Assembly (NCBI GenBank): GCA_046327735.1
Contig: JAXLXZ010000007.1
Location: forward strand, 16,525-80,524
Length of the DNA: 64,000 nucleotides
Origin: Gemmatimonadales bacterium
GTDB lineage: Bacteria; Gemmatimonadota; Gemmatimonadetes; Gemmatimonadales; GWC2-71-9
Direction of reading: 5' to 3'
Shown: positions 6,608 to 60,005 of the stretch, in pieces
Numbering within the stretch: position 1 is the stretch's first letter
Layout of the letters: each line of letters starts with the position of its first letter
Program-made: the position numbers and the translations under genes
The notes under the pieces: model-generated
What the model was told of the DNA's origin: nothing
Seen by the model: only the letters and a program-made list of their open reading frames with translations
Databases searched by the model: none

Positions 6608-6788
6608 TGTCATCCCGGGGAGCGCAGGTTGTCATCCCAAGGAGCCCAGGTCGGTTGTCATCCCGAGGAGCGCAGGTCGGTTGTCATCCCGAGGAGCGCA
6701 GCGACGAGGGATCTAGCTCGCGGTACGGGAGGCACGCTTCAGGGCAACGTCCAGTAGATCCCTCGGGCCGCTGGCCCTCGGGATGACA
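6608..6788. repeat. REP-like hairpin element (family A) with 4 tandem left-arm copies
   Basis: TGTCATCCCGAGGAGCGCAGG(TCGGT) occurs four times (6608-6714). The right arm AGATCCCTCGGGCCGCTGGCCCTCGGGATGACA is at 6756-6788. Confidence 0.85.
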
Positions 6789-8157: not shown

Positions 8158-9653
8158 TCCGCCGCGCGATGGCTCCCGCACTGTTCGCGCTGGCCCTGGG
8201 CGCCGCGCCCCTCGCCGCCCAGCGCCCGGTGCTCGACACCCTGCCCCAGGCAACCCTCTCGCTCGACGACGCGCTCCGGCTCGCGCTTCCCGCCAGCGAG
8301 GCGGTGTCCCTCGCCCGCTCGGCGGTGCGCCGGGCCCAGGGCGACGTGAAGAAGGCGCGGAGTGAGTTCTTCCCGCAGATCACCGGGACGGCGTCCTACA
8401 CCCGCACCCTCAAGTCGCAGTTCAGCCGCTCGGCGGGCGGCAGCGGCACGACGGACACGACCCAGACCACCACCACGAGCTGCAACCGCTTCCGGGGCGA
8501 TCCCTCGGCGCCGGTAGGCACCCGGCTCGACTCGCTGGAGAGCGCGGTCGGGTGCCTCACCTCGCTCAACCCCTTCGCGGCCTTCGGCAACCTCCCCTTC
8601 GGCCAGAAGAACCAGTATCGCCTCGGCCTCGACGGGAGCCAGATCCTCTATGCCGGCGGCCGGGTGCGAGCCCAGACCCGCGCGGCCCAGGCGGCGGAGC
8701 GCTCGGCGAAGATCGGGCTCACCGCCCAGGAGGCGCAGCTCACGCTGGACGTCACCCAGGCCTACTACGATGCCGCGCTGGCCGACCAGCTGCTCCTGAT
8801 CGCGCGAGGCACGCTGCAGCTCGCCGACTCGACCTACCAGCAGACGGTGCTGGCGCGGAAGGTCGGCTCCCAGCCGGAGTTCGACGTGCTGCGGGCGCAG
8901 GTGTCGCGCGACAACGCCCGCACCGCCGCGATCCAGCGGGAGTCGGACCGGGAGATCGCCTTCCTCCGGCTCAAGCAGCTGCTCAACCTGCCGCTCGCGG
9001 GGCCGCTCACGCTCACCACGCCGGTGGTCGACAGCCTGCTGCCGGTGGTGCCGGCGCTCGACTCGCTGGTGAGCCGCCAGCTCGACACGGTGGTCGATGA
9101 GCGGGCCCCGGTGCGCCAGGCGCAGGCCTCGGTCGACGAACAGGAGCAGCGCTACCGGGTGGCGAAGGCGGAGCGCTATCCGGCGGTGACCCTCTCCTCG
9201 AGCTTTGCCCGGCTGGGCTACCCGAGCGACCTGCTGCCGTCGTGGAGCGACTTCGTCTCCGACTGGACGGTGGGCCTCACGGTGAAGGTGCCGCTCTTCA
9301 CCGGCGGCCGGATCGGCGGGAGCGTGCAGTCGGCGGGGACCAACGCGGAGGATGCGCGCATCCGGCTCCGCCAGGCCCGGGAGCGCGCGGCGGTCGACAC
9401 CCGTTCGGCGCTCGAGCGGCTCCGCGCGGCCGGCGCCGCGTGGGAGGCGAGCCAGGGCACCGTGGCGCAGGCGGAGAAGGCGTACGCCATCGCGGAGATC
9501 CGCTATCGCAACGGGATCAGCACCCAGACCGAGCTGGCCGACTCGCGGATCCTGCTGGAGCAGGCGCGGGCCAACCGGGCGACGGCGGGCCGCGACCTGC
9601 AGACGGCGAGGGTGCGGGTGGCGTTGCTGCCGGAGCTTCCGCTGGCGCAATAG
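8154..9653 (+). CDS. TolC-family outer membrane efflux protein
   Basis: ATGA overlap with the TetR stop. Signal peptide, and two OEP repeats (SEFFPQITGTASY..., ERYPAVTLSSSFARLGY). Confidence 0.9.
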   Translation: MIRRAMAPALFALALGAAPLAAQRPVLDTLPQATLSLDDALRLALPASEAVSLARSAVRRAQGDVKKARSEFFPQITGTASYTRTLKSQFSRSAGGSGTTDTTQTTTTSCNRFRGDPSAPVGTRLDSLESAVGCLTSLNPFAAFGNLPFGQKNQYRLGLDGSQILYAGGRVRAQTRAAQAAERSAKIGLTAQEAQLTLDVTQAYYDAALADQLLLIARGTLQLADSTYQQTVLARKVGSQPEFDVLRAQVSRDNARTAAIQRESDREIAFLRLKQLLNLPLAGPLTLTTPVVDSLLPVVPALDSLVSRQLDTVVDERAPVRQAQASVDEQEQRYRVAKAERYPAVTLSSSFARLGYPSDLLPSWSDFVSDWTVGLTVKVPLFTGGRIGGSVQSAGTNAEDARIRLRQARERAAVDTRSALERLRAAGAAWEASQGTVAQAEKAYAIAEIRYRNGISTQTELADSRILLEQARANRATAGRDLQTARVRVALLPELPLAQ

Positions 9654-9684
9654 TGGGCCAGTGGGCCAGTGGGCCAGTGGGCCA
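9653..9684. repeat. Tandem octamer (GTGGGCCA)x4
   Basis: Four perfect copies starting within the TolC stop codon. Confidence 0.9.
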
Positions 9685-9848
9685 GGCAAAGGTACGGGAG
9701 AGACGCGGCGGACCGGGGGATTCCCGGAGCGGAACGTATGCGCCCGCTCTTCCGCATGGACGCCAGCCCTTTCGCCGAGCGCATCAGTTCCGCGGAGGGG
9801 CTCCCCCGGGACGCCGCGCCGACCTTGGAGCGTAGAAAGCAAAAAGCA

Positions 9849-14283: not shown

Positions 14284-14419
14284 GGGTTCCGGGTTCCGGG
14301 TTCGGAGTGATGAAGCGATGAGCCGGGTTGTCTAACCCTTGGGTAGCGGTAGCTGGCCAAGTCGAACCCGTGAATCCAGATTAGTCCGCTCGGAACTCGG
14401 AAACCCGGAACTCGGAACT
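14284..14419. repeat. Inverted arrays of GGTTCCG-type heptamers around a small hairpin
   Basis: GGGTTCCGGGTTCCGGGTTCGG (14284-14305) faces CCGCTCGGAACTCGGAAACCCGGAACTCGGAAC (14387-14419). The inner GGGTT-N4-AACCC is at 14325-14338. Confidence 0.6.
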
Positions 14420-20641: not shown

Positions 20642-20781
20642 CAGGATTTGGGGATTGATGATGGATGAGGGGATTGGTCGTTCAGGAGTTCGGCAGGAAC
20701 GTGATTGGGGGATTGAAGCGTGGTTGGTCTCGCGACCACCCGTTCAATCCCCCAATCGCTTTTCAGAATCCCCTAATCCTG
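20642..20781. repeat. Nested hairpin element built from GGGGATT/CAGGATT heptamers (family B)
   Basis: Outer arm CAGGATTTGGGGATTG (20642-20657) pairs with CAGAATCCCCTAATCCTG (20764-20781). The inner stem is a perfect 15 bp, GATTGGGGGATTGAA (20703-20717) with TTCAATCCCCCAATC (20743-20757). Confidence 0.8.
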
Positions 20782-25327: not shown

Positions 25328-26401
25328 TCAGCGGCGATAGGGGAGCGCGAGGACGCTGTCCCAGACGGCCAGCGCCGCCTTGGGATTCAGGAGGGTGTCG
25401 ACCAGCCCCAGCCGGGAGAAGGGACCCAGGTTGGGCGCCAGATTTTCGACCAGGTCGGTGAAGGTGATCTGGTGCAGGGCCACGCCCCGTGCCGCTGTCA
25501 GGAGCTCGGCCTGCCGGGCGATGTAGCGGGCCTGGACCGCCGGGGAACTACCATAGCCATCCGAGGGCCAGCCTCCCTCGAGCACCACCGGCCGGAGGCC
25601 GGTGCCGCCGGTCAGGCGGGAGTAGTAATCGAGGGGAATGGCCTCCGGCGTGGCGAACCCGCCGAGATACGGGTACGACGACAACCCGATCGCGGTCATG
25701 AAAGGGAAGTCGGTCAGGTCGGTGGCGATCCCGAGGAAGGGGCCGTTGAGGAGCTTTCCCCACGCCGTCTCCACCTGCACGCTGATCATCAGCGGCGTGG
25801 TGCTGCCATGCGCCTTCCGCTCGGCGGCCGCGGCGTTGGTCATCTGGACCACCGCCTGATAGACCGGCGCCGGCGCGAGTGCCCGGATCAGGTTGGTTTC
25901 CGCGGCGAGGCTGAGATAGTCGGGGTGCAGGATCGAGTCGACCGCCGCGACATACTCGCGGTAGCGACGCTGCACCGCGGTGTCGGTGATGCTCCGGCCC
26001 GCATCGACCAGCGGCTGGGCCTCGGCCGCGCGGTTGAGGCCGTTGGTGACATCGAGCGCGACCGTGACGAGGCGATGAGTGGCGCGATAGTACTGCACCA
26101 GCGGCAGGCGCACGACCCGGACCTCGGTTGCCGCGGCGGTATCGGCGAGCAGCACCGTCCAGGGAATCTCGAGCTGCACCAGCCCGGCATCGGAGTGCTG
26201 CGCCGTGAGGGTGAGGACCGGGACGATCAGCGAGGTATCGACCGCCGGCGGGATCGGGGAGAAGCCCATGTGAAAGGACCGGCTCGCCCCCGAGCCGTCG
26301 TCTCCACCGCACGCGACGCCGCCAACGACAAGCATCGTCAGAACTGCTTTCCGCAGATTACGCAGATTAGAAAGATTTCGATCGCGGACTGGATGGGTCA
26401 T
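25328..26401 (-). CDS. Hypothetical lipoprotein (possible TIM-barrel glycosidase-like fold)
   Basis: RKAVLTMLVVGGVAC lipoprotein signal. The start is uncertain (26401, 26335 or 26473) because a long hairpin spans 26347-26464. Confidence 0.55.
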   Translation of the reverse strand: MTHPVRDRNLSNLRNLRKAVLTMLVVGGVACGGDDGSGASRSFHMGFSPIPPAVDTSLIVPVLTLTAQHSDAGLVQLEIPWTVLLADTAAATEVRVVRLPLVQYYRATHRLVTVALDVTNGLNRAAEAQPLVDAGRSITDTAVQRRYREYVAAVDSILHPDYLSLAAETNLIRALAPAPVYQAVVQMTNAAAAERKAHGSTTPLMISVQVETAWGKLLNGPFLGIATDLTDFPFMTAIGLSSYPYLGGFATPEAIPLDYYSRLTGGTGLRPVVLEGGWPSDGYGSSPAVQARYIARQAELLTAARGVALHQITFTDLVENLAPNLGPFSRLGLVDTLLNPKAALAVWDSVLALPYRR

Positions 26402-26464
26402 TCGCTGCGAGCCCTGATCCCTCTGGGACCGTAATCCCCTGCAATCTGCGTAACCTGCGGAAAG
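26347..26464. repeat. Long hairpin built from GCAGATTAC repeats
   Basis: CTTTCCGCAGATTACGCAGATT (26347-26368) pairs with AATCTGCGTAACCTGCGGAAAG (26443-26464), 21 of 22 complementary. Confidence 0.75.
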
Positions 26465-32516: not shown

Positions 32517-33152
32517 ATGGATCCCGTCGCCCTGGCCTATCGCGAGACGCTCGGGCGGCTCGATCGCTGGTTCGACGAGGCGGTGGCGCGGAACCCCGGG
32601 GTCATCCCCTGCCGCGCGGGCTGCTCCGCCTGCTGTCACGGCCCCTTCGACATCTCCGCCGCCGACGCCCTCCTGCTTCGCGAAGCCCTCGCCGAGCTGC
32701 CGCCGGCGGACCGGGCCGACATCCGGGCCCGCGCCGTCGAGACGCTCGAGCAGGTGAAGGAACAGGCCCCGGAGTGGCGGGCGCCGTGGGACATCGCCGA
32801 CCTGGGGGAGGAGCGGTTCGACGGCATCTCCGAGTCGCTGTACGATGTCCCCTGCCCCTGCCTCGACGGCGAGGGACGCTGCCGGGTCTACGCCTCCCGG
32901 CCGCTGGTCTGCCGCCTGATCGGGCTGCCGATGATGACCGCCGAGGGGGAGCTGCTGGAGAACGCCTGCCCGATCCAGGAGGACTTCCCCGACTACGCCC
33001 TGCTCGACCCGCAGCTCTTCGACCTGGGGGCACTGGAGCAGCGGGAGAGCGGCCACAAGGAGGCGGCGGCGGAGAAGCTGTTCGGCGGGTGGAACCGGGC
33101 GGGATTCGAGACGATCATCGCGGCGGTGGCTTCAGAGGCGGAAAGGCGGTAA
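32517..33152 (+). CDS. YkgJ-family cysteine-cluster protein (UPF0153)
   Basis: CRAGCSACCHGPF and later CPCLDGEGRCRVYASRPLVCR. Confidence 0.75.
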   Translation: MDPVALAYRETLGRLDRWFDEAVARNPGVIPCRAGCSACCHGPFDISAADALLLREALAELPPADRADIRARAVETLEQVKEQAPEWRAPWDIADLGEERFDGISESLYDVPCPCLDGEGRCRVYASRPLVCRLIGLPMMTAEGELLENACPIQEDFPDYALLDPQLFDLGALEQRESGHKEAAAEKLFGGWNRAGFETIIAAVASEAERR

Positions 33153-33247
33153 GGCGGTCGGGCGGTCAGTGAAAACTCGAAAGGGTGAGCTTCTCTCGGA
33201 GCTCACCCTTTCAACGTTGCGGCTGTCCGCCCGACCGCCTGACCGCC
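33145..33247. repeat. Nested hairpin: inverted GGCGGTN heptamer arrays around a perfect 12-bp hairpin
   Basis: GGCGGTAAGGCGGTCGGGCGGTCAG (33145-33169) pairs with CTGTCCGCCCGACCGCCTGACCGCC (33223-33247). Inner AAAGGGTGAGCT (33180-33191) pairs with AGCTCACCCTTT (33200-33211). Confidence 0.85.
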
Positions 33248-34301: not shown

Positions 34302-34419
34302 GGCCGTTAGCCATAAGCCGCAAGCCGTAAGGAATTGCACTCAGTTTGAGCTTCGTCTCAACTCACCCTCTTCATACCGCTCACCGCACGGCCAATGGCT
34401 TACGGCTTACGGCTTACGG

Positions 34420-34426
<7 letters not shown>
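34302..34426. repeat. Inverted arrays of GCCGTAA heptamers between ctaD and ctaE
   Basis: GCCGTTAGCCATAAGCCGCAAGCCGTAAGG (34303-34332) faces (GGCTTAC)x3 plus flanks (34392-34426). The inner small hairpin is TTGAG-N6-CTCAA. Confidence 0.85.
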
Positions 34427-37527: not shown

Positions 37528-38073
37528 ATGTCAACAGCGATTGACAGCCCCTCCGCGGCACTCGCCCCTCTACACTCTGAACTCTGGACAAACATGACGC
37601 CCGCCGAGCGCAGCGCTTTCATCGATCGGTACGCCAACGGCCCGACACTTCTTGAAGCGGCCTTCACAAAATTCCCCGTCGAGGCCCGCCAATGGCGCCC
37701 CGCCCCGGGAAAGTGGAGCGCTCACGAGATCATCGTGCACTGTGCCGACAGCGAAGCCAATGCCCACATGCGGATCCGTTTCCTCGTGACCGAGAAGGAA
37801 CCGCTCATCGTGGGGTACGACCAGGATGCCTGGGCCACCGACCAGGACTACCACGCCCACCCGCTCGACCTCGCCTTCGCCACCATCCGGGCGGTCCGTG
37901 CCAACACCGTCCCACTCCTGCGCCGCCTGACGGAGACCCAGTGGGCCAAGGTCGGCCGGCACACCGAGAGCGGGACCTACGGGGCGGAGAAGTGGCTGGC
38001 GACCTACGCCGAGCACCTCGAAGTGCACGTCCGACAACTGGCGCGAGTGCTGGGGGCGTGGGAGAAGCGGTGA
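37528..38073 (+). CDS. DinB-family protein
   Basis: WSAHEIIVHCADSE...YAEHLEVHVRQL, a DinB metal-binding His triad pattern. Confidence 0.8.
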   Translation: MSTAIDSPSAALAPLHSELWTNMTPAERSAFIDRYANGPTLLEAAFTKFPVEARQWRPAPGKWSAHEIIVHCADSEANAHMRIRFLVTEKEPLIVGYDQDAWATDQDYHAHPLDLAFATIRAVRANTVPLLRRLTETQWAKVGRHTESGTYGAEKWLATYAEHLEVHVRQLARVLGAWEKR

Positions 38074-38276
38074 GCGGTGAGCGGTGAACGGTGAGCGGTG
38101 AGCGGTGAGCGGTGAGCGGTGAGCGGTGAGCGGTGAGCGGACCGAAGGTACCGTCCACCGGTGTCATCCCGAGGAGCGTCAGCGACGAGGGATCTACTTG
38201 CCTCGACTAGATCCCTCGCTTCGCTCGGGATGACAGCCGTATCGCAGGTCCCGCTCACCGCTTACCGCTCACCGCC
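38067..38276. repeat. Composite palindromic element: (GCGGTGA)x10 - REP family A hairpin - (TCACCGC)x3.5
   Basis: Heptamer array 38067-38140. REP left arm 38162-38195, loop 38196-38208, right arm 38209-38235. Inverted heptamers 38251-38276. Confidence 0.9.
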
Positions 38277-38287
38277 CACGTAGTTTG

Positions 38288-38950
38288 TTACTTCACCACC
38301 ATGTCGAACGCCACCGGCTCCCCCGGCACCTCGAAGGAGTAGTGCCACCACTCCTGGTCGTACTGCTTGAACCCCTCCTTCTCCATCGCGGTCCGAAGCA
38401 GCTGCCGGTAGCGCATCGTGCGCCCGGTCGCATTGGCCCAGTGCGCCGATTCGGCGAAGGTGTCGTACGGCGTGCCCATGTCGACCTCGCGTCCGCCCAT
38501 GCTCCAGTCCACCAGCGTCAGGTCGACCGCGAGCCCCAGGTTGTGTCGGCTGTGGCTCGCGATGTACCCGTCCTGGATGAAGTGCATCTGGTCGGTGCGC
38601 CGGGCCCACTCCACCATGCCGAGGGTCGCGCGCACCGGGCGGTAGCCGTCGAAGACCTTGAGCCCCATCCCCCCGCTCCGCAGCCGCTTCTGTACCCGCG
38701 CCAGTGCCTCGGCCGCTTCCTTCCGGAGAAAGGCCCGGTTGGCGAGATAGCCCGGAAGGGGAGCGCCAGTGAAGTTGTTGGCGGTGGCGTACCGCACCTC
38801 CACCAGGATGGTGCTGTCCTTCGCCCGCACGTCGGCGAGGAACTCGTGGGCCAGCGAGTCGCTCGCGACCCGCGGGCCGTCATCGGTAGCCTGTGCCAGC
38901 GCCGGGTGCGCAGCGAGGCTGAGCGTGAGAAGCAGGACGGGAATTCTCAT
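38288..38950 (-). CDS. D-alanyl-D-alanine dipeptidase (VanX/DdpX, peptidase M15D), secreted
   Basis: Signal peptide. VEVRYATANNFTG, DGYRP, SRHNLGLAVDLTL and EWWHY motifs. Confidence 0.85.
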   Translation of the reverse strand: MRIPVLLLTLSLAAHPALAQATDDGPRVASDSLAHEFLADVRAKDSTILVEVRYATANNFTGAPLPGYLANRAFLRKEAAEALARVQKRLRSGGMGLKVFDGYRPVRATLGMVEWARRTDQMHFIQDGYIASHSRHNLGLAVDLTLVDWSMGGREVDMGTPYDTFAESAHWANATGRTMRYRQLLRTAMEKEGFKQYDQEWWHYSFEVPGEPVAFDMVVK

Positions 38951-38978: not shown

Positions 38979-39070
38979 CAGAATCAGGATTGGCGGATGA
39001 TTGATGGATTTGGGGATTACAACGACATTGGACAGCAATCCTGCTAATCCATCAGAATCCCCGAATCCTG
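38979..39070. repeat. Family B heptamer hairpin (CAGGATT/GGGGATT/GATGGAT)
   Basis: Left arm 38979-39018 and right arm 39037-39070 are imperfectly complementary and share heptamers with 20642-20781 and 48932-49016. Confidence 0.7.
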
Positions 39071-48700: not shown

Positions 48701-48988
48701 GCCGCCGATCTCCGCGCCGCGGTCATCGAGGGCGCGGTCGAGCGGGTGCGCCCGAAGATGATGACAGTCACGGCGATCATGGCGGGGCTCCTGCCGATTC
48801 TCTGGGGCAATGGCGCGGGGGCGAGCGTGATGAAGCGGATCGCGGCGCCGATGGTGGGCGGGATGATCAGCAGCACGCTGCTGACGCTGGTGGTGATTCC
48901 GGCGGTGTATTCGCTGTGGAAGGAGAACGAGACAGGATTCCAGGATTCAACAACAGATCTGGGGATTACTGCTGGATCAGGGGCTTGA
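45716..48988 (+). CDS. CusA/CzcA-family heavy-metal efflux RND permease
   Basis: 1090 aa. MLAKLIDWSIRNRVVVL N-terminus and HME-type motifs (GGIAIAIGAMIDAAIVMIEN). Confidence 0.95.
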   Translation: MLAKLIDWSIRNRVVVLLLTIAAVAGGFWAVRHTPLEALPDLSDVQVIVQADFGEQAPRIVEDQVTYPITAEMLKVPGARTVRGYSFFGVSFVYVIFDDGTDLYWARSRVLEYLNGIKGKLPATVTPTLGPDATGLGWVYQYALEDTTGRLNLADLRSLQDWYLRYALTAVPGVSEVASVGGFEKQYQVDLDPARLQAYGIPITRVMSAIQNANSDVGAMVVELAEREHMVRGLGYLKNIGDIENVVVGATASGTPIRLAELGRVTVGPAVRRGIADLDGRGDAVGGIVVMRFGENALTTIAGIKEKMRTIAAGLPPGVVIRPVYDRSDLIHRAIETLRGKLLEESLIVALVCLAFLVHARSALVAILTLPVGILLAFLAMRTLGVNADIMSLGGIAIAIGAMIDAAIVMIENMHKHLERAAIARGADPAATSFETSGLTAEERWQVVSRAAREVGPALFFSLLIITVSFLPVFTLEGQEGRLFKPLAFTKTFAMAAASLLSVTLVPVAMGLFIRGRIHREHANPINRVLIRLYRPVIGVVLRQRWTVVALSAAAVILTWIPWRRIGSEFMPPLDEGTVLFMPTTLPGASVARAREILRIQDEALRRIPEVATVWGKAGRAETATDPAGLDMFETTIALKPESEWRPGMTSEGIIAAMDSVVRLPGVTNAWTMPIKGRIDMLATGIRTPVGVKIFGPDLAVLERLGREVEKAVKMVPGTRSAFAERAESGYYLDIDIDREAAARHGLNVGDVQTVIATAIGGMTVTQTVEGRERYGVRIRYPHELRDNPEKLLDVLIPAAHGGVGGEASRGGASAGMSVMAAASSRAQPAYVPLGQVARISQTAGPMVVRTEGAMPTAWVYVDVTGRDVGSYVAEAQRMVQGMVELPQGYTMVWSGQYEYMQRAAARLRLVVPATLGIIFLLLYLNFRNVGASLIVMLSLPFALVGGIWFLYLLGYHWSVAVAVGFIALAGVAAETGVVMLLYLEQAWGERPGRTAADLRAAVIEGAVERVRPKMMTVTAIMAGLLPILWGNGAGASVMKRIAAPMVGGMISSTLLTLVVIPAVYSLWKENETGFQDSTTDLGITAGSGA

Positions 48989-49016
48989 ACCCTCTAATCC
49001 GTCCCCAGATCCTGTT
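48932..49016. repeat. Family B heptamer hairpin overlapping the cusA 3' end
   Basis: The ACAGGATTCCAGGATTC...CTGGGGATT... left arm faces CCCTCTAATCCGTCCCCAGATCCTGT (48991-49016). Confidence 0.65.
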
Positions 49017-59738: not shown

Positions 59739-59866
59739 GAGCCGGGAGGGCGGAGCGGGAGCGGGGGCTCCGCGGAACTGACGTTCGCTCTCCGGCACCC
59801 ACCTCGCGCGGGATGGGCTCACTGACGTTCCGCTCCGCCCCCGCCCCCGCTCCGCCCTCCCGGCTC
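59739..59866. repeat. GC-rich long hairpin with GGAGCGG-type repeats
   Basis: GAGCCGGGAGGGCGGAGCGGGAGCGGGGGC (from 59739) pairs with GCCCCCGCCCCCGCTCCGCCCTCCCGGCTC (to 59866). ACTGACGTTC is present as a direct repeat at 59777 and 59821. Confidence 0.75.
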
Positions 59867-59941: not shown

Positions 59942-59982
59942 CCCCGGTTTTCTGACACGGCCAGTTGAGTGTGATGAGTTCC

Positions 59983-60005
59983 CGCTCACCGCTCACCGCT
60001 CACGC
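59983..60005. repeat. (CGCTCAC)x3 heptamer array
   Basis: The same heptamer (reverse complement of GGTGAGC) as the array at 38067-38140. Confidence 0.8.

Follow-up and report, generated by a model that had tools for sequence, protein, structure and literature searches.

Between two convergent protein genes of a soil bacterium of the Gemmatimonadales (assembly GCA_046327735.1, contig JAXLXZ010000007.1) lies an element made of two inverted arrays of a tandem heptamer around a hairpin, and the question it raises is what such an element is: a terminator, a set of binding sites, a product of slippage or an insertion. It was noticed in a stretch of 64,000 nt (C35:16525–80524 in our numbering), termed the window here. 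C numbers denote contigs, G000 is the source genome and other G numbers are its congeners. On balance we lean to the answer that the element is a gene-less, tolerated insertion of a class of heptamer-hairpin cassettes whose full form carries the gene for an intervening-sequence (IVS) protein. For the class as a whole the best reading is neither a terminator family nor a slippage artefact; we read its members as selfish or near-neutral passengers rather than a dedicated set of terminators or regulators. The feature is real, and its kind has already been published from Xanthomonas, Geobacter and cyanobacteria but is unexplained.

The left-hand neighbour (37594–38073, + strand) is a gene of the DinB_2 superfamily (Pfam PF12867, E 2.4e-16). 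The original prediction had labelled it dinB; the product is not DNA polymerase IV. We refer to the site as the dinB gap. Arrays of the element were called with Tandem Repeats Finder (TRF). The left arm (38066–38140) has 10.7 copies of AGCGGTG, the GTGAGCG word (period 7, score 143, 97% matches), with a single variant unit, GAACGGT, and the last Arg codon and TGA stop of the DinB_2 open reading frame (ORF) (CGG-TGA, 38071–38073) sit within its first GCGGTGA unit. This arm is exceptionally long for the GTGAGCG family, whose median arm is 29 nt. The linker that follows, ACCGAAGGTACCGTCCACCGG (38141–38161), resembles those of sibling composite copies, for example at C12:252554, and the composite is matched at 77–83% identity by about ten G000 loci. 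The loop is occupied by a member of a separate repeat family, a 74-nt hairpin resembling repetitive extragenic palindromic (REP) elements, TGTCATCCCGAGG ... CCTCGGGATGACA (38162–38235), with inverted arms at 38157–38173/38224–38240 and 38186–38196/38208–38218. The right arm (38251–38279) has 4.1 copies of CCGCTCA, the reverse complement of the left word (TRF period 7, 86% matches), and the two arms are complementary at 93% across 29 nt. The stop of the convergent neighbour, a D-Ala-D-Ala dipeptidase gene (Peptidase_M15; 38288–38950, − strand; PF01427, E 3.2e-28), is 9 nt from the right arm.

This was the main example of the original prediction, inverse heptamer arrays around a hairpin with a start in a stop codon, and as a structure it stands, with TRF counts of 10.7 and 4.1 copies. 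The element has what defines an array pair: at least three tandem 7–9-nt units per side, in reverse-complement order and a few hundred nucleotides apart. Its 29-nt arms also supply the terminal inverted repeats of ~25–35 bp, forming one long stem, that mark an IVS cassette. The loop contains the REP-like hairpin only, with no ORF of family PF05635, and the element is flanked by protein genes instead of being inserted in a helix of 23S rRNA.

The words are shared across the genome. In the source assembly (4.99 Mb, 69.7% GC, 37 contigs), tandem arrays of at least four copies number 415 at period 7 and 181 at period 8, with 96, 114 and 4 at periods 6, 9 and 10. Arrays of at least three copies in 4.48 Mb number 422 at period 7 and 245 at period 8, against ~92 and ~52 in a third-order Markov genome, an excess of ~4.6-fold. 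Of 473 heptamer arrays, 389 (82%) are built from just six words, given here as they read in the left arm: GTTCCTC, GTTAGCT, GTGAGCG, GTTAGCC, GTTCCGA and GTTCCGC. The words are thus not locus-specific as had been proposed; the remaining arrays are mostly of a few octamers with a GGCGG core. Runs of three or more G, capable of forming G-quadruplexes, are absent from GTGAGCG, GTTCCTC and GTTAGCC. The same words recur at many loci of this genome and differ between related species, and arrays are present in 17% of intergenic gaps. The dispersal of several tandem-heptamer families through intergenic DNA agrees with the earlier comparison to short tandemly repeated repetitive (STRR) sequences, as a likeness only, the host not being a cyanobacterium.

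An inverted partner lies within 400 nt of 378 of the 806 arrays, a direct partner of only 11. The proposed recurrence of inverted 7–8-nt tandem arrays thus holds genome-wide, with 287 paired elements. Within pairs the left form of each word is constant (69/69, 37/37, 28/28, 26/26 and 24/24), CCTCGTT being on the left in all 69 of its pairs and GTGAGCG in all 28. Arms have medians of 29–33 nt in all families (~30 nt, ~4 units), and loops a median of 59 nt (interquartile range 45–83). The asymmetry in copy number that had been seen in the window is general: left and right arms differ in copy number, and the two numbers show no correlation (r = 0.04). Variant units are scarcely mirrored between arms (1.81 versus 1.93 mismatches).

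Two kinds of known short motif were considered and rejected: sites like the attC core (GTTRRRY/RYYYAAC), their order being opposite to that of attC, and CsrA- or Shine–Dalgarno-type motifs in the GGA-containing words, which concern only part of the vocabulary and are too distant from start codons.

One explanation, that of the original prediction, is that each array is a local mutational by-product, a heptamer slipping in place with its mirror arm made by hairpin-templated switching. The assembly offers a built-in strain comparison for this, since it contains ~510 kb of haplotigs (C5, C11, C15, C16, C20, C21, C24–C26 and C29–C31) that are 93–99.7% identical to regions of C1, C12, C23, C34, C36, C7 and C14, a share consistent with the contamination estimate of 6.4%. 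Of 80 period-7/8 arrays, compared between haplotigs 1–6% apart, 60 have equal length on both haplotypes and only 2 differ by a clean multiple of the unit, so slippage is slow, contrary to what had been suggested. Phase-variable repeats, which combine hypervariable copy number with a contingency gene, are not what is seen either: the neighbours are housekeeping genes. Unequal arm copy numbers and the few unit-multiple differences between haplotigs speak for in-place slippage. Against it stand the stability of arrays between haplotypes, the concentration of the arrays on six words, the occurrence of these words at hundreds of loci and in PF05635 cassettes, and arms that are not copies of each other; a small vocabulary with absolute polarity is not expected from independent local slippage plus inversion. 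We consider this explanation very improbable.

Whole elements can differ where unit counts do not. At C23:140483–140601 an element with the word GGTCGAG is present on one haplotype and absent from the other, the haplotypes being ~5% apart, and stands in place of 19 nt between translationally coupled genes.

The same haplotigs bear on whether the arrays are an artefact of assembling or polishing noisy long-read metagenome data. In places where a haplotig reads as ordinary coding sequence, the corresponding primary contig does contain artefact blocks of poly-A, poly-G, (GA)n, (TG)n or (GC)n (C34:181530–181980, C23:189824–189944 and C7:94948–95111, all outside the window), and haplotig alignments show ~4100 small indels, mostly of 1 nt. 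The arrays behave differently: they have the same lengths on independently assembled haplotigs, more than 20 further assemblies of the genus, each made independently, contain them, and they form ordered inverted pairs at gene boundaries. An artefact, which the original prediction had named as a possible refutation, is therefore hardly credible.

A stronger competitor makes the elements functional parts of gene 3′ ends, as bidirectional intrinsic terminators or mRNA stabilisers in which the words merely lengthen the stem. The dinB-gap element does fold very stably as RNA: its 226 nt give −135.5 kcal/mol, compared with −94.2 ± 5.2 for shuffles (z −7.9). Genome-wide, outer ends of elements adjoin stop codons (median 5 nt), and the median distance to a start codon is 55 nt. 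Solo arrays have their outer end toward the nearest gene in 93 cases versus 38, and adjoin 3′ ends by that side in 59 versus 12. Other species have simple GC hairpins in the dinB gap, and mixed arms in the congener G037 (GTTCCGG opposite TCGGAAC) can still pair in RNA via G–U, which also favours a role as a stem.

Several observations speak against that role. The dinB-gap element lacks the U-tract that an intrinsic terminator needs beside its GC-rich hairpin; no promoter-like or U-tract terminator-like site was found in 37800–38500, and an Rfam scan of the element brought no family near its gathering score. Paired elements fall into convergent, tandem and divergent gaps 55, 117 and 46 times, essentially in the proportions of the background (593, 1571 and 732), so the claim that nearly all sit at gene 3′ ends does not extend to the genome, and 46 elements lie between divergent genes. 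These context counts are approximate because gene calls were home-made and the assembly has many 1-nt indels. Elements also lie between operon genes. Several sites with 100–170-nt elements in G000, operon junctions included, have spacers of only 0–28 nt in relatives (~12–28 nt at operon junctions, or overlapping genes), which explains why outer ends adjoin stop codons. One element, the 111-nt GTTCCTC element at C6:6117–6227, runs in frame and without a stop inside a photolyase-like gene; at the equivalent position G016 has a GGGGAAC element, G049 a GTACCGN element and G018 a plain palindrome. Variant units are barely mirrored between arms, and at least 15 of 39 congeners lack the surveyed arrays. 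The context pattern is that of insertions filtered by selection, not of a 3′-end device, and we regard a dedicated terminator or stabiliser function as unlikely.

If the elements are insertions, no conventional mobiliser is visible. No Y1/RAYT transposase gene (PF01797) was matched in G000, which is 98.5% complete, with control genomes matching, so RAYT was rejected as the mobiliser. No transposase-bearing unit lies between like arrays: there are only five long-spacer pairs, none with a transposase and two of them PF05635 cassettes, which rejects arrays as terminal repeats of insertion sequences (IS), and no association of arrays with IS was seen. Miniature inverted-repeat transposable elements were rejected likewise, there being no transposase-bearing unit with like terminal arrays and no regular target-site duplication. 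Junctions, compared with relatives, are untidy.

Comparison with relatives used 39 species-level genomes of the genus, searched with two word patterns (three tandem copies of GTTCCNN or of GTKAGCN) and with (CCTCGTT)3. The last is abundant only in G000 (229 matches) and G049 (42). Three copies of GTTCCNN occur in 23 of the 39 genomes, with no match in the other 16. The closest relative, G037, with ~85% nucleotide identity in flanking genes, has 394 such matches with words of its own (GTTCCGA, GTTCCGG and GTTCCGC), and G009, G017 and G034 use GTTCCCC in the opposite polarity. GTKAGCN arrays are abundant in G000, G046, G036 and G041 and absent from G037. Outside the genus the source-genome word also occurs in arrays of Acidobacteriota, Chloroflexota, Myxococcota, Xanthomonadales and cyanobacteria; the other genomes rich in it are labelled Gemmatimonadaceae. 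A search of all reference genomes for the exact paired pattern gave no match, the plain array being found in many phyla. A universal polarity rule, with the G/T-rich arm first, fits most words and was rejected, polarity being reversed for GTTCCCC versus GTTCCTC and in another Gemmatimonadaceae metagenome-assembled genome.

The dinB gap itself illustrates this turnover. Across 17 genomes of the genus it holds four word families in four species: GCGGTGA in G000, GGGCGGTA in G016, GGACGGCA in G008 and an inverted pair of GGGGAAC in G017. Elsewhere in the genus there are plain hairpins, or gaps down to 8–10 nt. The DinB_2 gene ends mostly in GCGGTAG in 16 congeners, and the words of G000, G016 and G008 resemble this ancestral gene end, a point in favour of words arising by slippage in place.

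Orthologous elements show what is inherited and what is not. Of 13 GTTCCTC elements of G000 traced in G037, eight have a counterpart of similar size and five have none. Two of the empty G037 sites keep exactly one unit, AGTTCCGGC and ACGCGGAAC, which looks like either a remnant left when the hairpin was deleted or a seed; these single units also speak for slippage. Loop homology between the two genomes is significant at four of the eight counterparts (z 4.4, 2.9, 4.2 and 7.2). In the arms, TC units account for 46 of 53 in G000 versus ~4 of 50 in G037; at two loci of the outgroup G011, word position 6 is G. Loops are thus inherited, and arms must have been rewritten in a genome-specific direction. 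Left and right arms in G037 frequently carry differing variants; together with the unmirrored units of G000 this means that the arms are not copied from each other, an idea that we rejected, mirroring of variant units being merely marginal. Each arm follows the genome-wide pool. At one locus new TC arms stand beside older arms of the GA type, and a 6-nt duplication surrounds the left one of the new arms; this fits short-patch templated copying from another array. The simplest cause of arm rewriting would be ectopic copying between 30-nt arrays. To judge from these alignments, what is new here is that orthologous loops appear to stay homologous while the arm word changes genome by genome, GTTCCTC in G000 and GTTCCGN in G037.

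The link to a protein comes from PF05635, the '23S rRNA intervening-sequence protein' family (S23p/IVP). G000 has three such genes, and all lie between inverted arrays of abundant words: C9:68174–68691 with GTTCCTC, C23:211280–211845 with GTTAGCC and GTAAGCC nested in mirror order, and C37:104030–104545 with AAGGCGGC. Among relatives 22 of 23 genes have the same arrangement, each with its own 7–9-nt word, and across the genus 25 of the 26 examined are bracketed by inverted arrays. The more two proteins differ, the more their words tend to differ (Mantel r 0.52, 0 of 5000 permutations), and all nine 8–9-nt words fall in one clade of the protein. Genes of the family are found in 35 of the 39 genomes. 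The four without (G006, G001, G050 and G014) have zero matches for both surveyed word superfamilies, a coincidence with a chance of ~1.7% by our own calculation, which takes genomes as independent; in 160 kb sampled from three of them no array-armed hairpin was found, where ~10 are predicted at the density of G000. To state what is new: 25 of 26 PF05635 genes lie between inverted arrays, the protein clade co-varies with word and period, and the four congeners without the gene are array-less. We found no published link between heptamer arrays and PF05635 in the literature.

These cassettes offer some further observations. The nearest solved structure is PDB 2GSC, from Xanthomonas campestris. 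The single 23S rRNA gene measures 2936 nt against a model of 2925 positions, so it has no insert. In the cassette C9:68174–68691 the ORF meets no stop before the array, so the C-terminus of the protein (...RGTRNEERGT) is translated from the repeat arm. One chromosomal site is occupied in G046 (L190, C5:320760–321780) by a cassette with GTTCAGC and in G009 (L172, on C5) by one with AGGTGGC; their PF05635 proteins are only distantly related, which suggests replacement or repeated insertion.

In our favoured explanation the full form of the class is a PF05635 four-helix-bundle gene between inverted arrays, as in the ORF-bearing IVS of 23S rRNA. Several results nevertheless weigh against deriving gene-less hairpins such as that of the dinB gap from it. 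Gene-less loops resemble neither the resident cassettes nor anything else in the genome, so descent by internal deletion is unsupported, and loops as remnants of resident cassettes were rejected for want of signal. No PF05635 cassette with the GTGAGCG word was found in G000 or in GTGAGCG-rich G036. The four genomes without the gene may form one clade, and protein and word may co-vary simply by being inherited together. A 60-kb sample of G031, with two PF05635 genes, contained no array hairpins, and the gene is therefore not sufficient; a sample of equal size from G043, which has only a decayed copy, contained none either. Lastly, target-site duplications and clean empty sites were not found, one possible 6-nt duplication excepted.

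Proteins could also enter as readers of the arrays. Arrays might be binding sites (operators) for a nucleoid-associated protein or global regulator, as proposed for Geobacter, where the authors suggested IHF/HU-type binders and IS elements lie at a fixed distance from the sites (PMC2700814). An arm length held at ~4 units in all families, a fixed polarity and genome-specific words are what one might expect of such sites. However, the ten or more words per genome would require many binders, the elements show no tie to gene function or promoter position and occur within coding sequence and operons, many congeners with the same housekeeping genes lack them, and there is no candidate protein apart from PF05635. 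We think an operator function improbable.

Tentatively, that candidate may have a different role: the tandem-word arrays may have PF05635 proteins (Avd-like; chains A–E in PDB 2GSC) as a partner that acts in trans. Each protein clade would then read its own word and period, ~4–5 units per arm, on DNA or RNA, and the protein would maintain, homogenise or spread its own cassette together with hundreds of gene-less hairpins. Such a partner would explain why each genome has words of its own, why arms change in concert at orthologous loci and why arrays are lacking where the gene is missing.

For the dinB-gap element we keep to a gene-less, tolerated insertion as the favoured reading. Elements of the class occur wherever an insertion is tolerable; one locus can inherit an element across species; whole elements are gained or lost, occasionally leaving single units; and arms remain clean, at ~4 units, while the loop drifts. 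The dinB-gap copy would be one with the GTGAGCG word whose left arm has grown to 10.7 units and whose loop has in addition taken in an unrelated REP-like hairpin. Arms would be homogenised among loci either by a trans-acting factor or by ectopic copying of short patches from one 30-nt array to another, through template switching or gene conversion. When transcribed, perfect stems of 25–35 bp would be predicted to act as IVS stems cut by RNase III or as inert 3′ stem-loops, and either would account for the tolerance of elements that follow a stop codon or lie within an operon.

What lies in the loops varies. In three word families the loop contains a hairpin peculiar to the family and conserved through compensatory changes: one with a GACCCTCC stem in the GTTAGCY family, one with a GAAGGGYGAGC stem in the GGCGGTCA family, and the REP-like hairpin in the GTGAGCG family. 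Most loops are singletons (142 of 196), and we rejected on that ground the idea that loops are one diverged family. Loops as patchworks of genomic fragments were also rejected, since off-site matches of the largest family are no better than those of control intergenic and coding segments. The REP-like family has 149 complete hairpins in the genome, of which 137 lie outside any array pair. Conversely, only 9 of the 25 elements with the GTGAGCG word contain the hairpin; spacers in this set of 25 fall into two groups, of 7–59 and of 92–121 nt. It is therefore a nested second repeat and not general design, and the inner hairpin cannot be kept as a shared part of the architecture, as the original prediction had it. 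The REP-like family itself has 302 left-arm and 342 right-arm matches beside its 149 complete hairpins, so many of its arms are unpaired; at 6608–6788 of the window the left arm stands four times in tandem, with one right arm.

Elsewhere in the window, the sites at which the design had been said to recur divide into several kinds. Three are true inverted pairs of tandem words: (GGGTTCC)x2.9 ... (CTCGGAA)x4.3 of the GTTCC superfamily at 14284–14419; (AGGCGGTA)x3.9 ... (CTGACCGC)x3.1 at 33136–33247, with a family-specific inner hairpin GAAAGGGTGAGC...GCTCACCCTTTC and a loop that belongs to a cluster of 11; and an imperfect GCCGTAA-type left arm ... (GGCTTAC)x3.6 at 34314–34421. Two are true solo arrays, (AGTGGGCC)x4.2 at 9652–9685, which begins at a stop codon, and (CCGCTCA)x3.1 at 59982–60003, with the word of the dinB-gap element. 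The site at 26347–26464, with just two copies of a 9-mer, is marginal. The other five (545–707, 20642–20781, 38979–39070, 48932–49016 and 59739–59866) are imperfect palindromes in which copies of a word are scattered or irregularly placed and form no regular tandem arrays, and to these the claim does not extend. The first of them is a ~160-nt imperfect palindrome without tandem words, different in kind from the array elements. Those at 20642–20781, 38979–39070 and 48932–49016 form a dispersed palindrome family of irregularly spaced GGGGATT/CAGGATT words, which recall the GGGGA(T/C)T unit of Nostoc, yet are non-tandem here.

To our knowledge, the excess of heptamer repeats in bacteria, noted since 1990, has never been explained. 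The genus is a natural experiment on this: its 39 species-level genomes range from none to ~800 arrays and each has a separate vocabulary, loops persist at orthologous elements while arms are rewritten, and one small gene family is packaged in like hairpins. These features make the question testable. Elements of this kind also fill 17% of the intergenic gaps, supply stop codons, can extend or interrupt ORFs and break short-read assemblies, and so matter for annotating genomes from soil metagenomes.

Among known systems, cyanobacterial STRR heptamers were reportedly described by Mazel in 1990. The STRR and TAACTGA repeats resemble the present arrays in comprising several tandem-heptamer families, in being intergenic and in their patchy distribution across phyla. 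The TAACTGA repeats of Beggiatoa are nearly all direct and lie just upstream of start codons (MacGregor 2015, PMC4679880), and in Nostoc inverted pairing of arrays is rare (PMC4692102).

Closer in form are the ~190 intergenic GGGAATC arrays of Xanthomonas, mostly of at least four units, 70–75 of which form convergent opposite-strand pairs; the single or paired type is conserved between species and lengths differ, with no IS link and no known function (Rehm et al. 2015, PMC4692102). Both hosts are GC-rich and both have inverted heptamer pairs. Xanthomonas has one G-rich, G-quadruplex-capable word, whereas here there are at least ten words, G-tracts being absent from most of them, and arrays are about four times as numerous; polarity, arm turnover and a PF05635 link are not reported in that paper (PMC4692102). 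The solved PF05635 structure 2GSC is from X. campestris. Geobacter metallireducens has three classes of 3–5 tandem 7–9-mers (GTTGCTYN, TCTCCGTS[Y] and MTYCTGA), mostly as opposite-strand pairs at variable distance and between operon genes such as proBA; they are absent from G. sulfurreducens and were interpreted as 'global regulator binding sites' (Aklujkar et al. 2009, PMC2700814). Its classes have 8–24 pairs each, fewer than here, and class 1 sites have IS at a fixed distance, which is not seen here. With these two precedents (PMC4692102, PMC2700814) the earlier remark that no described equivalent was known from GC-rich bacteria has to be corrected.

REP elements and the REPIN-RAYT system are similar in being short intergenic palindromes in species-specific families, with long vertical persistence and a proposed single-copy protein partner. 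They differ in that G000 has no Y1/RAYT gene and that the arms here consist of tandem words instead of a single conserved palindrome. G000 does have a true REP-like family, but its 149 hairpins are a separate entity and only sometimes nested in array elements.

The closest likeness in build is to the ORF-bearing IVS of Coxiella and Leptospira, which have terminal inverted repeats of ~28 bp and a ~400-nt PF05635 ORF in the loop, are sporadic and are regarded as selfish. In Coxiella the IVS encodes S23p, and its terminal stem is 28 bp long and is cleaved internally by RNase III (Warrier et al. 2016, PMC4990558). This build is shared by the three G000 cassettes and by 22 of 23 in relatives; unlike IVS, these cassettes lie between protein genes rather than in rRNA, and the dinB-gap element has no ORF. 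If PF05635 proteins were indeed the partner of the arrays, they would unite the STRR, the Xanthomonas and Geobacter repeats and the rRNA IVS as one transposase-less protein-repeat system.

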